This document shows, piece by piece, positions 11,864-46,230 of a stretch of 54,028 nucleotides of DNA; position 1 is the stretch's first letter, and each line of letters begins with the position of its first letter. Origin of the DNA: an uncultured Bdellovibrionales bacterium (GTDB taxonomy: Bacteria; Patescibacteriota; Minisyncoccia; Moranbacterales; UBA2206); contig CAYTIK010000001.1 of the NCBI GenBank assembly GCA_964438025.1, positions 47,557 to 101,584 on the forward strand, written 5' to 3'. Position numbers and translations under genes: made by a program. The notes under the pieces were generated by a model. It made no database searches. It had not been told where the DNA came from and saw only the letters and a program-made list of their open reading frames with translations.

Positions 11864-14326
11864 TTAAATTACAATATTTATCAGCCGATTTTTAACAAAG
11901 ATGGTTTTTTTAATTTCTTTTCCGGAAAGATAATTTTGGATTTTTTGGCTTTTTTTAGCCAATTCTTTCGCCTCGGCTTCGGCTGTATCTACAGAAATTT
12001 TTATCCTATCCCGCACTTTTCCGTTGATCTGAACCACTAATTCTATTTCCTCATCCCGAATAAGCGCGGGATTATACTCCGGCCATTTTTGTTTGAAAAT
12101 ACTATCCTTATGCCCGAGTCTTAACCATAATTCTTCCGCCAGATGCGGTGCGAATGGCGCTAAAAGTTTCAAAAAATTTTCTAGCGCCCTTTGCGGCATT
12201 TCATTAAACTTGCTGGCAAAATTTACGAATATCATCATCTGGGAAATGGCCGTATTGAAACGCAGCTTTTCTATGTCTTCGGTTACTTTTTTTATAGTTT
12301 TATGCAGCATTTGTGGCAAGCCTGATTCTTTCATCTGACAATTCTCGCCTTGACAATCGTATAATTTTTTATCTTTTAATTTATAAACATTTTCCAAAAA
12401 TCTTTTTATCCCCACGATGCCTTGGGTGTTCCAAGGCTTAGCATCTTCCAATGGTCCCATAAACATTTCAAACATCCGCAAACTGTCGGCGCCGAATTTT
12501 TTAACCACTTCGTCCGGATTGACGACGTTACCCTTGGATTTCGACATTTTATTTCCATCTTCCGCCAAAATTATACCTTGATGGCGCAGTTTTAAAAAGG
12601 GTTCATCAAAATCAATATAACCCAAATTATGGAGCACTTTGGTAAAAAAGCGGGAATATAGAAGATGCAAGACGACATGTTCCGCTCCGCCGACATACAA
12701 ATCCACCGGCAGCCATTTTTTCAGCATTTTTTTGGAAGAAAATTCTTGAGTGTTCTGTGGATCGCTATAGCGGAAATAATACCAAGACGAGCAGACAAAA
12801 GTATCCATCGTATCCGATTCTCTTTCGGCTTTGGTGCCACAAATAGGACATACGACATCCTGGAATTTTTTAGAATACTTCAGTGGCGATTCTCCGGTCG
12901 GATTAAAATCCACATCACCTGGAAGTAAAACCGGCAAATCTTTTTCCGGAACGGGAACTTCGCCGCATTTTTTGCAATAAATGATCGGAATTGGAGCGCC
13001 CCAATAACGCTGTCGTGAAACCAGCCAATCGCGTAATTTATAATTTATCGTACCCTGGCCAATTCCCTCTTCTTCTAGCCATGCGGTTAATTTTTTTCGC
13101 GCTTCGGCTGAAGTTAAAAAATTATATTTTCCGGAATTATTCAAAACTCCGTCATCAATATAAGCTTCTTCTGCAATTGAAGATTTTTTGTCCACACTCT
13201 TAATAACTTCCTCAATTGGCAGATTAAATTTTTTGGCGAATTCCCAATCGCGTTGGTCGTGCCCTGGCACTGCCATGACCGCGCCCGTGCCGTAATGTGC
13301 CAACACAAAATCGCTAGCAAAAAGCGGGATGGATTTTTTAGTAAAAGGATTAATAATTTCAATGCCTTTAAGCTCGACTCCAGTTTTATCTTTGACTTCC
13401 GTTTGGCGCTGTAAATCAGTTTTTTTCTTGGCTTGCTGGATATATTTTTCTACTTCTGGCCAATTGGTAATTTGCGGTTTTAATTTTTGCACCAATCCGT
13501 GCTCGGGTGCAATTAAAGCAAACGTCATACCAAAAACCGTATCTAAACGAGTAGTAAAGACTTCCATCTTCAGATCGCTATTTTTTATCGACATTTTGAA
13601 TTGCGCGCCTTCACTTTTCCCAATCCAATTGCGCTGGCCAGCCTTAGTCGATTCCGGCCAATCGATTTTATCTAGACCGCTAAGCAACCCGGAAGTACGT
13701 ACCTCAGAGGCTTCTATAGAATCCTCTATAAAATCGGTTATCTTGAAATACCACTGCTCCAACTCTTTTTGCACGACTGGTTTACCGCAACGATCGCACA
13801 CTCCGCCTTCAGCTTGTTCATTAGCCAAAACCGTTTGGCAAGAATCGCACCAATTGACCTGGCCTTTCTTTTTATAAGCTAAACCATTTTTATAGAGCAG
13901 TAGAAAAAACCATTGTGTCCATTTATAATATTCCGGAGCGGAAGAATTGATTTCGCGCGACCAATCATACGAAAAGCCCATCATGTTCATCTGTTTTTTA
14001 AAGGTAGTGATGGCTTTTTTGGTCGTTTCCGCCGGATGTATCTTAGTCTTAATAGCGTAATTTTCCGCTGGTAAACCGAAAGCATCCCAGCCTTGTGAAT
14101 GTAAAACCTCGCAACCTTTCATCCTTAAGTAGCGAGAGACTATATCCGTGGCTGTGTAGCTTTCCACATGCCCCGTGTGCAGTCCTTCTCCCGAAGGATA
14201 AGGAAACATATCCAAGATATACTGCTTCTCCCCTTTTTTGGTTTCAGAGGCTTTATTTAAGCCAGAATCTTGTTCCCAAACTTCCTGCCATTTAGATTCA
14301 ATTTGTTTTGGATCGTATTTTTCCAT
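11864..14326 (-). CDS. leuS: Leucine--tRNA ligase
   Basis: HTGHV (HIGH), KMSKSKGN, CP1 editing domain; 820 aa. Confidence 0.95.
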   Translation of the reverse strand: MEKYDPKQIESKWQEVWEQDSGLNKASETKKGEKQYILDMFPYPSGEGLHTGHVESYTATDIVSRYLRMKGCEVLHSQGWDAFGLPAENYAIKTKIHPAETTKKAITTFKKQMNMMGFSYDWSREINSSAPEYYKWTQWFFLLLYKNGLAYKKKGQVNWCDSCQTVLANEQAEGGVCDRCGKPVVQKELEQWYFKITDFIEDSIEASEVRTSGLLSGLDKIDWPESTKAGQRNWIGKSEGAQFKMSIKNSDLKMEVFTTRLDTVFGMTFALIAPEHGLVQKLKPQITNWPEVEKYIQQAKKKTDLQRQTEVKDKTGVELKGIEIINPFTKKSIPLFASDFVLAHYGTGAVMAVPGHDQRDWEFAKKFNLPIEEVIKSVDKKSSIAEEAYIDDGVLNNSGKYNFLTSAEARKKLTAWLEEEGIGQGTINYKLRDWLVSRQRYWGAPIPIIYCKKCGEVPVPEKDLPVLLPGDVDFNPTGESPLKYSKKFQDVVCPICGTKAERESDTMDTFVCSSWYYFRYSDPQNTQEFSSKKMLKKWLPVDLYVGGAEHVVLHLLYSRFFTKVLHNLGYIDFDEPFLKLRHQGIILAEDGNKMSKSKGNVVNPDEVVKKFGADSLRMFEMFMGPLEDAKPWNTQGIVGIKRFLENVYKLKDKKLYDCQGENCQMKESGLPQMLHKTIKKVTEDIEKLRFNTAISQMMIFVNFASKFNEMPQRALENFLKLLAPFAPHLAEELWLRLGHKDSIFKQKWPEYNPALIRDEEIELVVQINGKVRDRIKISVDTAEAEAKELAKKSQKIQNYLSGKEIKKTIFVKNRLINIVI

Positions 14327-14450
14327 AATGGCGCTGAAATACCTATTTTAAAGCTTTTTTAGATTACCCTTTCACTTTACCTTATTTCGGGTTAATTTTC
14401 AACTTTTGGATTCTTTTGGCTCTTTTACTTTTTTTGCGCTTTTTTATCCA

Positions 14451-14503
14451 AAAAATAAAAAGACCTGGACATCTGTGAGTGGTGATTCACAAACATCCAG
14501 GCC
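14451..14503 (-). terminator. Strong hairpin plus T-run ending an unassigned minus-strand transcript upstream of leuS
   Basis: GGCCTGGATGT...ACATCCAGGTC-type stem, followed by TTTTTATTTTTT on the minus strand. Confidence 0.5.
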
Positions 14504-14869
14504 CTTATTCGAAAAAAGAGATTAGACTCTTTTTTCTGGGAAACGAAATCTCCAGATTTCCCATCCGCCCGTCAGAACAAAACAAAGTGGGAAGTAAAAC
14601 CATTTAATCCTCCATTTGCTTTTCAAAACAAAGCAAAAAATGCGATCGAAGGATCCGCTTAAGTCCTTCCGCGCGATATGCCACAATCGCTCTCGAGCTT
14701 TTTTATCATTGGCATATCTTTCGGTTACATGGAGACTTGCCTTAATAATTCTCCTGCCCTGGCAGCATCTTTTCCTAAAGCAAATGACAAAGAGTTGATA
14801 CTTTCTTCCTTTTTTCACAGATTCTCCTTTCTCAGGCTTCCAAAATAAAATTGCGTGAAAAAACAATCG

Positions 14870-15322
14870 CTAAGGAATAACTATGAACCCGACATTATCT
14901 CCGTCATCGACCAGCTTAGCGTAAATCAAAATTACTTCTTTATCTGGATATTTTGCCAAGATTTTTTCTTTGGCTTTTTGCAGTTCGTTTTCATGGAATT
15001 TTTGTTCCGCTTCAATATCTCCGTCAAATTTTTCCGCTCCGCCATAAGCTCCGCAATCAGCATGATTTACGATAATTATTTCCTCGGCATGATGTAAATC
15101 GCAAGGAACGCTGATACATTTAAGGGAAATATCGTCTTCGTTTTGGCATTCATTGATCGCTTTAGCCGCTCCAGGAAGTGAAGGAAAATCAAAATCTTGA
15201 ATCTTCAGTTCAGTTTCCGCAAAATCAACCGTCTCTCTCCAAAATCGAAAATCGATACAAGTTAGAAGAACTGCTTTACAATGGTGAATTCCCTTGTGCT
15301 TAAACGGATACTTTTTTGCCAT
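14870..15322 (-). CDS. Beta-carbonic-anhydrase-like superfamily protein
   Basis: CIDFRF ... HADCGAYGG resembles the CxDxR / HxxC zinc-ligand pattern. Confidence 0.45.
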   Translation of the reverse strand: MAKKYPFKHKGIHHCKAVLLTCIDFRFWRETVDFAETELKIQDFDFPSLPGAAKAINECQNEDDISLKCISVPCDLHHAEEIIIVNHADCGAYGGAEKFDGDIEAEQKFHENELQKAKEKILAKYPDKEVILIYAKLVDDGDNVGFIVIP

Positions 15323-42464: not shown

Positions 42465-45400
42465 TTAGTCTTTTTTTATCTGCAATTTTATTTTTTCTCC
42501 GTCGATGACGGATTCCTTTTCCAGATCTGCGTTTTCAATATTTTCTGATTTTAGCTCGTTGGCCAAAATCTCCTTAGCAATAATATCGCCGAATTTTTCA
42601 AAGACCTGCGACATTCCAGAATAGCTGACAATTATGCGATTGTCAACTTCATAACCCGCTTCCTTGCGCATTTCCTGGATGAAGCGGATAATTTCGCGGG
42701 CTTGGCCTTCGAGTTTTAGTTCTGGAGTAATTTTGGTATCCAGTTCGATTTCTTTAAATTTTTTATCTTGAATAACTTTTTTAACATTCACTTCTTCTTG
42801 GATGATTTTCAAAAATTCCTTGCTTAATTCCTGACTCATAATTCTTAATTCCGCTAAGGGTTGGCGCACTTTTATACCATTTTTGGCTCTAAGCTGCAGC
42901 GCTACCGTAATAATATTCCTGGTTTCCGCCATTTTGTTATTTAATTTTTCATCAATCAGTTTTTCATCCGCTTTGGGAAAATCGGTCAGATGCACGGACC
43001 CGCCTGCATCGCTATGCGAAGCATTGCGGGCAGGTTCTTCACCGGTTAGATTTTTATAGATTTCTTCCGCAATAAATGGCGTAAACGGTGCCATCAGCTT
43101 GGCCAGTTCTGTTAATACCGTCCAAAGTGTCTGATAAGCATTTTCTTTATCGGCGTCGTCTTCCGATTTCCAAAATCGCTTACGGCTGCGGCGGATATAC
43201 CAATTAGAAAGATTATCAACAAATAACTCGAATGGTTTGGTTGATTTTACCAAATCATAACCTTGCATGCTTTCATCCACTTTTTTTATCAATTTATGCA
43301 GTTCGGAAATAATCCATTTATCTAATAAGTTTTTAGTTGGTGCTTGGTGGTTAATAGTCTTTAACGGTTCCCACTTATCCACACCGGCATACAGAACAAA
43401 GAAGGAATAACTATTCCACAAAGTCGCCAAGACTTTTCTTTGAATATCCTGAATCGGTTTTTCGGAAAAATTAATATTCTGCGCATCCAGCAGCGGCGAG
43501 GATAAAAAATAAAAACGTAAGGCATCGGCGCTATATTTTTCCAAGACAACATCTGGCAAGGTGTAATTTCCCAGTGATTTAGACATTTTTTTGCCATCTG
43601 ATCCGGCAATAGTCCCTGTCGTCACAACATTTTTGAAACTTTCTTTGCCGAATATCCCTACGGAAACAACATGCAGCACGTAGAACCAAGCTCTGGTTTG
43701 CGCGATATATTCGGAAATAAAATCAGTTGGAAAACTTTTTTCAAATTTTTCCTTATTCTCAAAAGGATAATGAAATTGGGCGAAAGGCATTGAGCCGGAC
43801 TCAATCCAGGAATCAAAAACTTGCGGAATTCTTTTCATAACTCCTCCGCATTTACAAGCAAATGAAATATTATCTACCCCCGGCCGATGATAATCTTCCA
43901 GTTCTACTCCGGAAACTTCCTTCAGCTCCGCGTATGATCCAAAAACTTTAATCTCTTGGCAATTTTCCCTATCGCATTTCCAAACCGGAATGGCTGTCCC
44001 AAAATAGCGATCACGAGAAATATTCCAATCCGGCGCGCTTTCAATTCCGTTCTGAAAACGACCGTGTTTGAGAAAATCCGGAAACCAACTAATATTTTCA
44101 TTCTGAGCGATTAAATCTGGCCGCATTTTAGCAATGTTTACATACCAAGCCGGTTGTGCCTTATAAATCAATTTTGTATGACACCGGTGGCAATGCGGGT
44201 AACTATGCGTTATTTGTTCTCGTTTAAAAAGTATCTTGTATTCTTTTAGCCAAGCTACAATTTTATCATTGGCATCCCAAACTTTTTGTCCCTGCCATTT
44301 GCCTTCCGTAAGTTTTCCCTCATCATCTACATTCATAATAATTGGCAAATCGTCAGTTTTTCTGGCATTAAAGTCATCTTCTCCGAAAGCTGGCGCAATA
44401 TGCACAATCCCCGTTCCGTCTTCAGTTGTTACGAAATTAGCTACGATAACTTTGTAAGCATTTTCTTCAAGCTTATCATGTAATTCAATATTTTTGACAA
44501 CATCTTTAGATCTTTTTTTAAAATTATTATCTTCTTTAATAGCAAATACTGATTCCTTATTTTCCTTTAAATCTATATTTTTAAGTGACGGAATAAACAT
44601 CCCTGCCTTAATATTATTTTGATAATAATCAAATATTGGCTCATATTTTTTACCCATTAAATCTTTACCTTTAAATTCTGCTTCAACTTTATATTCTTTA
44701 CCGGCAAAAACTTCTTCAACCCTATCTTTGGCTAAAATATAATAATCTTCTCCGCAAATAATTTTAACGTAATTAATTTCTCCGCCTACCGCCAAAGCCA
44801 CGTTAGCTAAAAGCGTCCAAGGCGTCGTCGTCCAAACGAGAAAATAAGCATTCTCTTCGCCTCTAATTTTCATTTTCACATATACCGACGGATCGCTGTC
44901 CATTTCATAACTATTATCCATCGCAATTTCAAAATTTGATAATGGCGTTGAACAGCGTGGGCAATAAAGTGAAACGCGCACATCTTCATAAATCAAACCT
45001 TTTTTAAACAATTCCGAAAATGCCCACCAAACCGATTCCATATAACCTTTATCCATGGTCTTGTAGGCATTTTTAAATTCCACCCAGCGGCCGATGCGAT
45101 CAATAATATCTTCCCATTCGCTGGCAATTTGGGAAGTCTCAGAGAGGCAAGCTTCATTGAACTTGGCAATTCCGATTTTTTCCTCAATTTCTTTTTTGCT
45201 CTTGATCCCCAATTTTTTTTCCACCATATTTTCCGCCGGCAGACCATGGCAATCCCATCCCCAGCGCCGTTCTATTCGGTAACCTTTCATAGCCCAATAT
45301 CTCGGCACAGTATCTTTAACAATGGAAGAAAGCAAGGTTCCATAATGCGGCACCCCTGTAATAAAGGGTGGGCCATCATAAAAGCTGTAATATTTATCTT

Positions 45401-45509
45401 TGCTTCTTTGCTCAATCGACTTTTCAAAAGTTTTGTCTTCTTTCCAAAATTCGATTACCTCTTTTTCCATTTCGGAATATTTTTTTCGCGCGTCGACTTT
45501 TTTAAACAT
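42465..45509 (-). CDS. ileS: Isoleucine--tRNA ligase (type 2 / eukaryote-like)
   Basis: PHYGTL (HIGH variant), KMSKSLGN, CP1 editing domain; 1014 aa. Confidence 0.95.
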   Translation of the reverse strand: MFKKVDARKKYSEMEKEVIEFWKEDKTFEKSIEQRSKDKYYSFYDGPPFITGVPHYGTLLSSIVKDTVPRYWAMKGYRIERRWGWDCHGLPAENMVEKKLGIKSKKEIEEKIGIAKFNEACLSETSQIASEWEDIIDRIGRWVEFKNAYKTMDKGYMESVWWAFSELFKKGLIYEDVRVSLYCPRCSTPLSNFEIAMDNSYEMDSDPSVYVKMKIRGEENAYFLVWTTTPWTLLANVALAVGGEINYVKIICGEDYYILAKDRVEEVFAGKEYKVEAEFKGKDLMGKKYEPIFDYYQNNIKAGMFIPSLKNIDLKENKESVFAIKEDNNFKKRSKDVVKNIELHDKLEENAYKVIVANFVTTEDGTGIVHIAPAFGEDDFNARKTDDLPIIMNVDDEGKLTEGKWQGQKVWDANDKIVAWLKEYKILFKREQITHSYPHCHRCHTKLIYKAQPAWYVNIAKMRPDLIAQNENISWFPDFLKHGRFQNGIESAPDWNISRDRYFGTAIPVWKCDRENCQEIKVFGSYAELKEVSGVELEDYHRPGVDNISFACKCGGVMKRIPQVFDSWIESGSMPFAQFHYPFENKEKFEKSFPTDFISEYIAQTRAWFYVLHVVSVGIFGKESFKNVVTTGTIAGSDGKKMSKSLGNYTLPDVVLEKYSADALRFYFLSSPLLDAQNINFSEKPIQDIQRKVLATLWNSYSFFVLYAGVDKWEPLKTINHQAPTKNLLDKWIISELHKLIKKVDESMQGYDLVKSTKPFELFVDNLSNWYIRRSRKRFWKSEDDADKENAYQTLWTVLTELAKLMAPFTPFIAEEIYKNLTGEEPARNASHSDAGGSVHLTDFPKADEKLIDEKLNNKMAETRNIITVALQLRAKNGIKVRQPLAELRIMSQELSKEFLKIIQEEVNVKKVIQDKKFKEIELDTKITPELKLEGQAREIIRFIQEMRKEAGYEVDNRIIVSYSGMSQVFEKFGDIIAKEILANELKSENIENADLEKESVIDGEKIKLQIKKD
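42999..43034. repeat. 36-nt GC-rich hairpin element, in frame in ileS
   Basis: Plus strand CCCGCCTGCATCGCTATGCGAAGCATTGCGGGCAGG. On the coding strand it encodes PARNASHSDAGG just before SVHLTDFP. Confidence 0.85.
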
Positions 45510-45939
45510 AAATTTTAATTGAAATTAATAATAAAATTATGGTAAAAACTATTTCTGTCTTGGAAAAAATTGGCAACCAGCCTTTAATTTTTATTTTTAA
45601 GGGATAAAAATATTGCTTTTCATCTTTATCCGGAAAATCCAAAGCTAAATGCAACATATAGCCTGAAAAAAAATAAATACCCCCGGAAAAACTTATAACA
45701 AAAACGATTAGGGACAACAGTAATCCTCCTAAAATAGAATGCCCGTATTTTGTTTTATACCTGATACCGTATTTTTCTTCGTTCACTACGCTATCTACTA
45801 ATTTATTTATAGAAAATAATTTATTTTTAAAAATAATGAAAATATGATCAATGTCAGGAATTACCGAACCCAGAAACCAGAACCAGGAAAAATGATTTTC
45901 AGCAGGAAGTGTTCCGATTATAATGTGCGCCAATATCAT
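45502..45939 (-). CDS. DUF457/YdjM-like membrane-bound hydrolase, co-transcribed with ileS
   Basis: Overlaps the ileS start by 8 nt. Hydrophobic; IPDIDH and LHLALDFPD motifs. Confidence 0.5.
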   Translation of the reverse strand: MILAHIIIGTLPAENHFSWFWFLGSVIPDIDHIFIIFKNKLFSINKLVDSVVNEEKYGIRYKTKYGHSILGGLLLSLIVFVISFSGGIYFFSGYMLHLALDFPDKDEKQYFYPLKIKIKGWLPIFSKTEIVFTIILLLISIKIYV

Positions 45940-45940
45940 A

Positions 45941-46155
45941 AAATAAAAAACATCCTTAAAGTCATATAAGGACGCTTCCGCGTGGTACCACCTTAATTTT
46001 CCCGTCAGTCGTGACTGACAGGACTCAATTTTGGCTATTACGGGCCCTGCCCGCAGTTGCTACGCATAAGCGTTGCAGGCGGGCTAACCGGCGAGATCTA
46101 CTCATCAATAAAGATTTTCTTCTCGCAGCTCCGAGGTGATAGCCTCATCATCGCT
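45941..46155 (-). promoter_or_regulatory. T-box riboswitch leader (Ile) with terminator/antiterminator
   Basis: Minus strand reads AAAAUUAAGGUGGUACCACGCGG (45978-46000). Antiterminator: UAAGG / 7-nt bulge UGGUACC / ACGC-GGAA-GCGU / CCUUA. Competing terminator CGUCCUUA...UAAGGAUG plus a U-run (45941-45974). The 5' end carries a GAUGAUGA K-turn-like motif. Confidence 0.8.
46046..46083. repeat. 38-nt member of the GC-rich hairpin family, embedded in the T-box leader
   Basis: Plus strand CCTGCCCGCAGTTGCTACGCATAAGCGTTGCAGGCGGG. Both 10-nt ends are identical to the ileS copy. Confidence 0.8.
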
Positions 46156-46185
46156 TTTATATGATTTAACTATAAATTAAACCCG

Positions 46186-46230
46186 ATAAAAAAACAAGGG
46201 CACCGATACAGCAACGCTGTTGATGCCCTT
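46186..46230 (-). terminator. Rho-independent terminator after the parB-like gene
   Basis: AAGGGCA...TGCCCTT stem, then GTTTTTTT on the minus strand. Confidence 0.7.

Follow-up and report, generated by a model that had tools for sequence, protein, structure and literature searches.

T-box riboswitches are a model for RNA-RNA recognition and have been proposed as antibiotic targets, and genomes of the candidate phyla radiation (CPR, or Patescibacteria) are thought to be poor in regulation. T-boxes that act on transcription generally require a long Stem I with an elbow platform, an essentiality that has been contrasted with the translational ones (PMC7583486, section 6.2; PMC11297988). T-boxes with an ultrashort Stem I have been defined as a translational class whose members all act on ileS (bioRxiv 10.1101/2023.02.28.530422), and are found in Mycobacterium smegmatis, Mycobacterium tuberculosis and Nocardia farcinica (Sherwood et al. 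2015, following the accounts in bioRxiv 10.1101/2023.02.28.530422 and PMC7583486). Here we analyze the leader of a ydjM-ileS operon in a 54,028-nt stretch of DNA (the window, whose positions are used as coordinates throughout) from a CPR bacterium; leader, ydjM and ileS all lie on the minus strand. The leader is probably a functional tRNA-Ile-responsive T-box riboswitch that controls the operon by transcription attenuation. Its decoding module appears to be of the actinobacterial ultrashort ileS type, and its predicted output is a terminator instead of a Shine-Dalgarno (SD) sequestrator.

Model matches, leader architecture and specifier

A scan of the window at Rfam gathering thresholds listed no T-box. 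When the local region was searched with RF00230 under an E-value threshold, the full-length model (positions 1-219) matched at 45965-46160 with 57.9 bits (E 3.7e-12), which is significant though below the gathering score. Two differences account for the deficit in score: 6 nt stand in for 76 Stem I positions of the model, and Stem IIA carries an insertion of 41 nt. We also derived a covariance model of our own (R1) from eight leaders upstream of ileS in related genomes, excluding the leader of the window; R1 found this leader with 118.3 bits (E 3.2e-25) as its sole match in the window. An initial reading of the DNA by eye and open reading frame list (the sequence-only reading) had proposed an Ile T-box with an ultrashort Stem I upstream of DUF457-ileS at 45941-46155, and the models, the codon, the tRNA and the covariation described below support it. 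The place was right, and the exact limits were not, as the functional unit extends slightly more widely, from about 46160 to 45945. A structured region upstream of leuS (14100-15000), considered as a further T-box, gave no T-box or other credible match in Rfam and none with R1.

From the sequence and the RF00230 alignment, Stem I (46128-46154) consists of a kink-turn (K-turn; C-stem GC/GC, 3-nt bulge GAU, tandem G.A/A.G) and a 4-5 bp helix GAGG/CCUC closed by the loop CUAUCA. The K-turn is recognized by its sequence, GC-GAU-GA ... GA-GC, and its closing pairs covary among relatives; the distal T-loop platform (interdigitated double T-loop motif, IDTM) is missing. In Stem II (46091-46126), defined from alignments of relatives, an S-turn-type internal loop (5′ AGAAA, 3′ GAGUAGA) separates the basal helix GCGAGA/UCUCGC from the upper helix AUC/GAU, and the GAAGAAA and AGUAGA motifs are almost invariant among relatives. 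The Stem IIA/B pseudoknot follows in two halves: CGGUUAG at 46084-46090, aligned to CGGGnnnG of relatives, and GCCCG UAAUAGCC at 46033-46045, which carries an F-box-like CCGUAA. The 3′ half was assigned from excision of an inserted repeat (see below) and from IIB covariation in relatives, which was read by eye (UUGAU/AUCAA, AGUG/CACU, GAUC/GAUC, ACCG/CGGU and CCACU/AGUGG). The RF00230 and R1 alignments place Stem III at 46000-46023, as UCCUGUCAGUC-ACG-ACUGACGGGA with a purine-rich UUGAG before it and AAAA after it. They also place the antiterminator, or discriminator core, at 45967-45995, with helix A1 (UAAGG/CCUUA), the 7-nt bulge UGGUACC (45984-45990) and helix A2 (ACGC-GGAA-GCGU). Thus, every structural element that had been picked out from the letters was found on the minus strand where it had been placed. 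The T-box 3′ domain, with A1, the bulge, A2 and a competing terminator, is present base for base; the K-turn and short hairpin GAGG-CUAUCA-CCUC do form the 5′ end of the leader; and the candidate Stem II with an S-turn-like loop is borne out by its near-invariant motifs and covarying helices.

We note that a single 23-nt sequence, UGUCAGUCACGACUGACGGGAAA, constitutes Stem III of both the ileS leader and a thrS leader in this genome (G000). Its palindromic core, GTCAGTC-NNN-GACTGAC, recurs at two non-T-box sites (listed positions: window 46000-46023 and G000 C14:6027, C5:6084 and C2:482). The shared Stem III could come from a second family of small palindromic repeats that occupies this stem, or the two leaders could have undergone gene conversion.

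Covariation was assessed on 75 ileS leaders from CPR (Moranbacteria, Saccharibacteria/TM7 and Paceibacteria), in an alignment that had been fitted to the model. Standard pairs filled 90.8% of the cells, compared to 62.5% in shuffles, and 34 of the 37 pairs showed changes on both sides; the covariation score was 0.728, against 0.05-0.16 with slid partners. Double changes occurred in all 4 pairs of the Stem I helix (91.6% of cells paired), and covariation was likewise complete in the Stem II basal helix (5/5 pairs, 99.7% paired), the Stem II upper helix (3/3) and Stem III (6/6). The A1 and A2 helices were 96.6-96.7% paired, with covariation. RNAalifold run on a plain MAFFT alignment returned the same helices, with compensation in 20 of 32 pairs. 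The pseudoknot columns were 55.8% paired in fixed register, a low value because loop lengths differ; given this and the reading of its covariation by eye, the pseudoknot is less well supported than the helices. Apart from the inserted repeat, the leader in the window retains the conserved blocks of the family alignments.

The specifier codon AUC (Ile) lies in the Stem I terminal loop at 46138-46140, with the conserved purine A next to it at 46137. In all 75 leaders this loop holds AUC; the next base is A in 68 of them, and the base before it is U in 64. The sequence-only reading had compared this arrangement of AUC and A with that of the actinobacterial ultrashort T-boxes, and had named AUC triplets in GAAAAUCU and UAGAUCU as possible alternatives. 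Both of these lie within Stem II helices and read AUC in just 2.7% and 4% of the homologues, so that the loop codon was upheld. The genome has a single tRNA-Ile(GAU) (G000 C5:31535-31609) with the anticodon loop CU-GAU-AA and no encoded CCA. Its discriminator, A73, is complementary to the U of UGGU, a bulge sequence shared by 69 of the 75 leaders, and thus fits the T-box as expected for the cognate tRNA.

Could the leader nevertheless resemble a T-box by chance, or be a structured RNA of another kind? The score under the Rfam gathering threshold would speak for this. The RF00230 and R1 E-values, however, were obtained over full-length models, the element is syntenic with ileS in dozens of genomes, covariation is found in every helix, and both codon and discriminator fit the cognate tRNA. 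We regard this explanation as already effectively refuted by the model matches and the covariation.

Expression platform and operon

A terminator scan identified an intrinsic terminator at 45945-45974 (CGUCCUUA-UAUGACUU-UAAGGAUG followed by U6). Since its 5′ arm is the 3′ strand of A2/A1, terminator and antiterminator are mutually exclusive; predicted folding energies are -10.5 to -14.4 kcal/mol for the terminator and -7.5 kcal/mol for the antiterminator. A terminator-finding script called 40 of the 75 leaders. For most Moranbacteria-type relatives the script identified an equivalent terminator, and in the rest it was seen by eye. In Saccharibacteria leaders a U-run is visible 10-20 nt past the discriminator, with weaker stems, and we therefore claim terminators firmly for the Moranbacteria-type leaders alone. 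The minimum free energy fold of the window's leader paired the specifier-loop region with the T-box bulge (UAUCACC/GGUGGUA). This was taken as an artifact of the particular sequence, because relatives vary in the Stem I 3′ strand that takes part in this pairing.

The 3′ arm of the terminator, UAAGGAUG, contains an SD-like AAGGA 13 nt ahead of the ydjM ATG, and no other SD-like sequence was found between the terminator U-run and the ydjM start (45939-45974). The switch might then act on translation, or at both levels, with sequestration of AAGGA controlling ydjM translation as in Actinobacteria, and the rest of the architecture does equal that of the translational ultrashort class. A hairpin directly followed by U6 is, however, a canonical intrinsic terminator, and in relatives the start codon is 25-40 nt or more away from the UAAGG arm and the U-run is always present. 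The conserved feature is thus the terminator and not the SD spacing, and we consider translational control very improbable.

We favor transcription attenuation, by a mechanism that would run as follows. The nascent leader would present AUC-A in the terminal loop of the K-turn-kinked Stem I of 4-5 bp, where we infer that AUC is read by the GAU anticodon of tRNA-Ile. The S-turn of Stem II would clamp the weak, A/U-rich codon-anticodon helix from the side, and the K-turn and the IIA/B module would position Stem II for this. With uncharged tRNA, the 3′ ACCA would pair with the bulge UGGU and, together with Stem III, stabilize the antiterminator, so that the polymerase could read into ydjM-ileS. 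With charged tRNA or none, the more stable terminator would form and transcription would stop at the U-run.

The surroundings of the leader were also delineated. Upstream of it, a terminator scan found the intrinsic terminator of a ParB-like gene (46188-46228, minus strand; stem GGGCAUC...GGUGCCC and a U-run), which delimits the beginning of a separate transcription unit to which the leader belongs. The first operon gene in the open reading frame list, at 45502-45939, encodes a YdjM/DUF457 membrane protein of 145 aa (Pfam PF04307, E 2.6e-13); its ATG at 45939 lies 6 nt past the U6 run of the terminator. It overlaps by 8 nt with ileS (42465-45509), whose 1014-aa product is an isoleucine-tRNA ligase (NCBIfam TIGR00392, 860.6 bits against a cut-off of 621.4). 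This IleRS is of the eukaryote-like type 2, scoring 722 bits to PDB 1ILE and 282 bits to 1FFY of S. aureus. It is 70-72% identical to IleRS of Candidatus Moraniibacteriota/Patescibacteria metagenome-assembled genomes, with Saccharibacteria next at ∼48%, in agreement with the CPR-like character that had been read from the DNA. The genome assembly comprises 914 kb in 40 contigs and is 98% complete; its size and base composition are likewise as expected for CPR.

A palindromic repeat in the Stem IIA loop

A GC-rich palindromic repeat (family consensus 36 nt, CCCGCCTGCAACGCTTTGCGTAGCAATGCGGGCAGG) is present as a 38-nt copy at 46046-46083 in the Stem IIA loop, on the minus strand. The family has at least 12 copies in the genome, one of them in frame within ileS (42999-43034). 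The sequence-only reading had recognized the repeat and its limits but had it standing where Stem IIA/B would be; the IIA/B module is in fact present, and the repeat lies within its loop. Exact excision of the repeat joins CGGUUAG to GCCCGUAAUAGCC (giving CGGUUAGGCCCGUAAUAGCC), a standard 20-nt IIA/B module that is one base off the CGGGUAGGCCCGUAAUAGCU of leader L010. The leader of a same-genus relative, L005 (CGGGCAGGCCCGUAAUAGCC), is without the insert. From these two observations, the repeat would have entered the Stem IIA loop and split the 5′ strand of IIB. Comparison of leaders with and without the hairpin, which had been proposed at the outset, showed that the repeat is missing from L005 and, at the IIA loop, from all of the other 74 leaders in the alignment. 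We accordingly read it as an apparently recent insertion. No target duplication is obvious at the insertion site, and searches of metagenome contigs did not find an empty-site or shorter-insert allele, a weak negative since the searches were for exact matches.

Inserts of 50-100 nt are common at the apices of Stem II and Stem III among the 75 leaders. In L018 (G006 C1:151618-151820), the ileS leader of a relative, the tip of Stem II is occupied by a GC-rich palindrome of another kind (CCCGCCUUCGUCCCGCUGAGCGGGACUACGGCGGG). Such repeats land repeatedly in these leaders, usually at peripheral loops. L051, which had seemed a second leader with a large insert in the IIA loop, proved to be an alignment artifact, and its pseudoknot is intact.

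Several points weigh against a functional transcriptional switch. The RF00230 match, at 57.9 bits, is well under the gathering score of 93 bits, and the covariation counts come from the model-fitted alignment. The terminator stem is modest, at 8 bp, and the elbow platform that is missing here has been held necessary for transcriptional T-boxes to capture tRNA fast, within the brief interval left until the polymerase arrives at the terminator (PMC7583486). In the pseudoknot, the fourth Stem IIA base is a U where relatives have a near-invariant G, and the repeat sits between two bases of the IIB 5′ strand; the leader in the window is alone among the 75 in having a large insert in the IIA loop. 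Since the insert splits a pseudoknot on which tRNA binding depends in the actinobacterial homologues, and since it is the sole such case, function could be impaired.

These last points raise the prospect that the leader is a T-box by descent that was crippled by the palindrome, with sensing lost or badly weakened and ileS expressed by leakage through the terminator or from another promoter. In a homologue, tRNA binding falls by about 1,200-fold when the pseudoknot is deleted (PMC7583486). The insertion point within IIB, the lack of a large insert at that site in all other leaders, whose Stem II and III apices often carry one, and the G-to-U change in Stem IIA would all fit such a loss. Against it, the remaining conserved blocks and the terminator are intact, and the repeat is a self-contained hairpin (-18.6 kcal/mol when folded alone) that would hence bring its two ends together; Stem II, Stem III and the discriminator have the same predicted fold with or without it. 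The hub of the pseudoknot might also be rebuilt in either of two ways. A nested helix GGUUA/UAGCC could form around the hairpin, or the 3′ arm of the repeat (CGGGCAGG) could act together with GCCCG, reading CGGGCAGGGCCCG, which resembles the native CGGGCAGGCCCG and is almost the pseudoknot of L005. By analogy with the homologue, in which a hairpin in place of the pseudoknot recovers about 200-fold of the roughly 1,200-fold loss in tRNA binding (PMC7583486), tolerance of the insert is plausible. Furthermore, because ileS is essential and a T-box is OFF by default, a dead sensor ahead of an intact terminator should be selected against and the terminator quickly lost, and here the terminator is kept. 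We therefore consider a crippled T-box unlikely, and a working, tRNA-responsive attenuator remains the favored explanation. Most likely, the repeat protrudes as a hairpin of its own, or makes of the pseudoknot an extended hairpin, and the predicted switch still works.

Distribution in CPR and comparison with known T-boxes

The sequence-only reading had remarked that T-boxes are not generally associated with CPR lineages; this did not hold, as they are common there. RF00230 gave sub-threshold matches in 31 of 41 genomes of the same order, none of the 41 reaching the gathering score, and most of the top matches lay directly upstream of ileS. With R1, a full-length match upstream of ileS was found in 56 of 80 CPR genomes that had been retrieved through their IleRS, including Nanosynbacter, Nanogingivalis (TM7), Paceibacteria and Parcubacteria. 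Among 151 genomes sampled evenly across Patescibacteria, 45 had R1 matches, some with 2-5 copies. Truncation of Stem I keeps every one of the CPR T-boxes under the Rfam cut-off. Several ileS leaders (L016 [G005 C4], L007, L020, L021, L029, L031, L055, L056 and L089) have a three-way junction at Stem I, made by an additional hairpin inserted between its helix and the K-turn 3′ strand.

Leaders with a terminal-loop codon precede other synthetase genes of the order as well, namely thrS (ACC), glyS (GGC) and aspS (GAC). The 136-nt thrS T-box of the same genome (G000 C14:5983-6118, equivalent to L002:1501-1636, minus strand) shows ACC-A in the terminal loop CUUAACCAA. It lacks Stem II and has a pseudoknot CGCG-AGUUGCC-CGCG...GGCAA, a UGGA bulge and a terminator; seven homologues align, with 17 of 28 pairs compensated. 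ARAGORN did not find a tRNA-Thr(GGU) in the 40-contig assembly, only those with CGU and UGU, though the thrS specifier is ACC, and tRNA-Asn(GUU) and tRNA-Ser(GCU) were likewise not found. Either the missing tRNAs lie in assembly gaps or the thrS switch reads a tRNA that escaped detection. The glyS leaders of the order (L116 [G004 C8:14709-14826], L022, L026, L027, L033, L120, L125 and L126) are minimal T-boxes of 113-137 nt, the shortest of them 113-118 nt, with a K-turn hairpin whose loop is (A)UUGGC(U/G), a Stem III and a UGGA discriminator, and without Stem II or pseudoknot. An aspS leader, L011 (G030 C1:186496-186683), has the full ileS-type architecture, with S-turn Stem II and pseudoknot, and a terminal loop CUGACA (GAC-A). 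A third class of T-boxes has a long, GC-rich Stem I and the bulge UGGUACC or UGGCAAC, and scores 25-41 bits with RF00230. Its members (L003:1501-1819 [G000 C10:1567-1885], L025, L028, L115, L123 and L127) lie upstream of non-synthetase genes: a 235-aa protein that matches no family and precedes an M20 peptidase, a TrpD-like protein and a YbdK-like ligase.

Full-text literature searches, of incomplete coverage, turned up neither a paper that connects T-box riboswitches to CPR, Patescibacteria, Saccharibacteria or related names nor a publication on terminator-coupled ultrashort T-boxes. We propose tentatively, and with chances that we put somewhat short of even, that these leaders represent a phylum-wide T-box class, not found in print, that switches transcription without an elbow platform. 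Within it, the ileS subclass, with its full Stem II, pseudoknot and type-2 IleRS, may provide a link to the actinobacterial translational class, and the copy in the window would be a natural experiment on the tolerance of IIA/B for a 38-nt hairpin. One possible route for such a link is transfer of the gene together with its leader between Saccharibacteria-like epibionts and their actinobacterial hosts. If true, the proposal would contradict the current idea that transcriptional T-boxes cannot do without the platform and that a short Stem I is tied to translational control. A CPR family that joins an ultrashort decoding module to a terminator would make the kinetic argument about tRNA capture directly testable, and the inserted palindrome offers a ready-made structure-function variant of the pseudoknot. 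The leaders point to sensing of tRNA charge on core translation genes in CPR, in a family that extends to thrS, glyS and aspS and is sometimes without Stem II. Annotation at the Rfam gathering score, which no leader in the 41 relatives passed, misses T-box regulation across a phylum.

Canonical transcriptional T-boxes (RF00230; Bacillus subtilis tyrS type) share the order of domains with the leader described here: Stem I with a K-turn, Stem II with an S-turn, IIA/B with an F-box-like CCGUAA, Stem III, a UGGN bulge and a terminator/antiterminator. They likewise precede an aminoacyl-tRNA synthetase gene and have a specifier that ends in C. In contrast, the specifier internal loop, the AG bulge and the distal loop/IDTM are all missing here, and the codon, which sits in a side bulge in the canonical T-boxes, is in a hairpin loop. 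In B. subtilis, the T-box of glyQS is a natural case of a transcriptional T-box that has lost Stem II, like the thrS and glyS leaders of this CPR order. It keeps a long Stem I with the elbow platform, however, whereas the ileS leader keeps Stem II and loses the platform. The inserted repeat is reminiscent of Rickettsia palindromic elements and of repeats like the repetitive extragenic palindromic (REP) sequences and miniature inverted-repeat transposable elements (MITEs), which are also short, GC-rich, palindromic and multi-copy and occur within functional sequences. It differs in being just 36-38 nt long, in having no obvious target duplication and in lying inside a riboswitch pseudoknot.

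The closest likeness is to the ultrashort ileS T-boxes of Actinobacteria, a comparison that we draw from published descriptions and not from a direct alignment of sequences. Both place AUC and a purine in the terminal loop of a very short Stem I that has a basal K-turn and lacks the elbow-binding double T-loop; in both, Stem II has an S-turn and the IIA/B pseudoknot is compact. Both also regulate ileS and sense tRNA-Ile, which for the leader in the window is suggested by gene context and the match of codon and anticodon. Mycobacterial IleRS, too, is of the eukaryote-like type 2. The two differ in output, an SD sequestrator in Actinobacteria and an intrinsic terminator/antiterminator here, in their hosts, Actinobacteria versus CPR/Patescibacteria, and in the 38-nt palindrome carried by the pseudoknot. 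The copy in the window thus appears to add to the CPR family an ileS form with complete Stem II and pseudoknot, which would be the closest counterpart of the actinobacterial class, and one with a putatively mobile palindrome in its pseudoknot.

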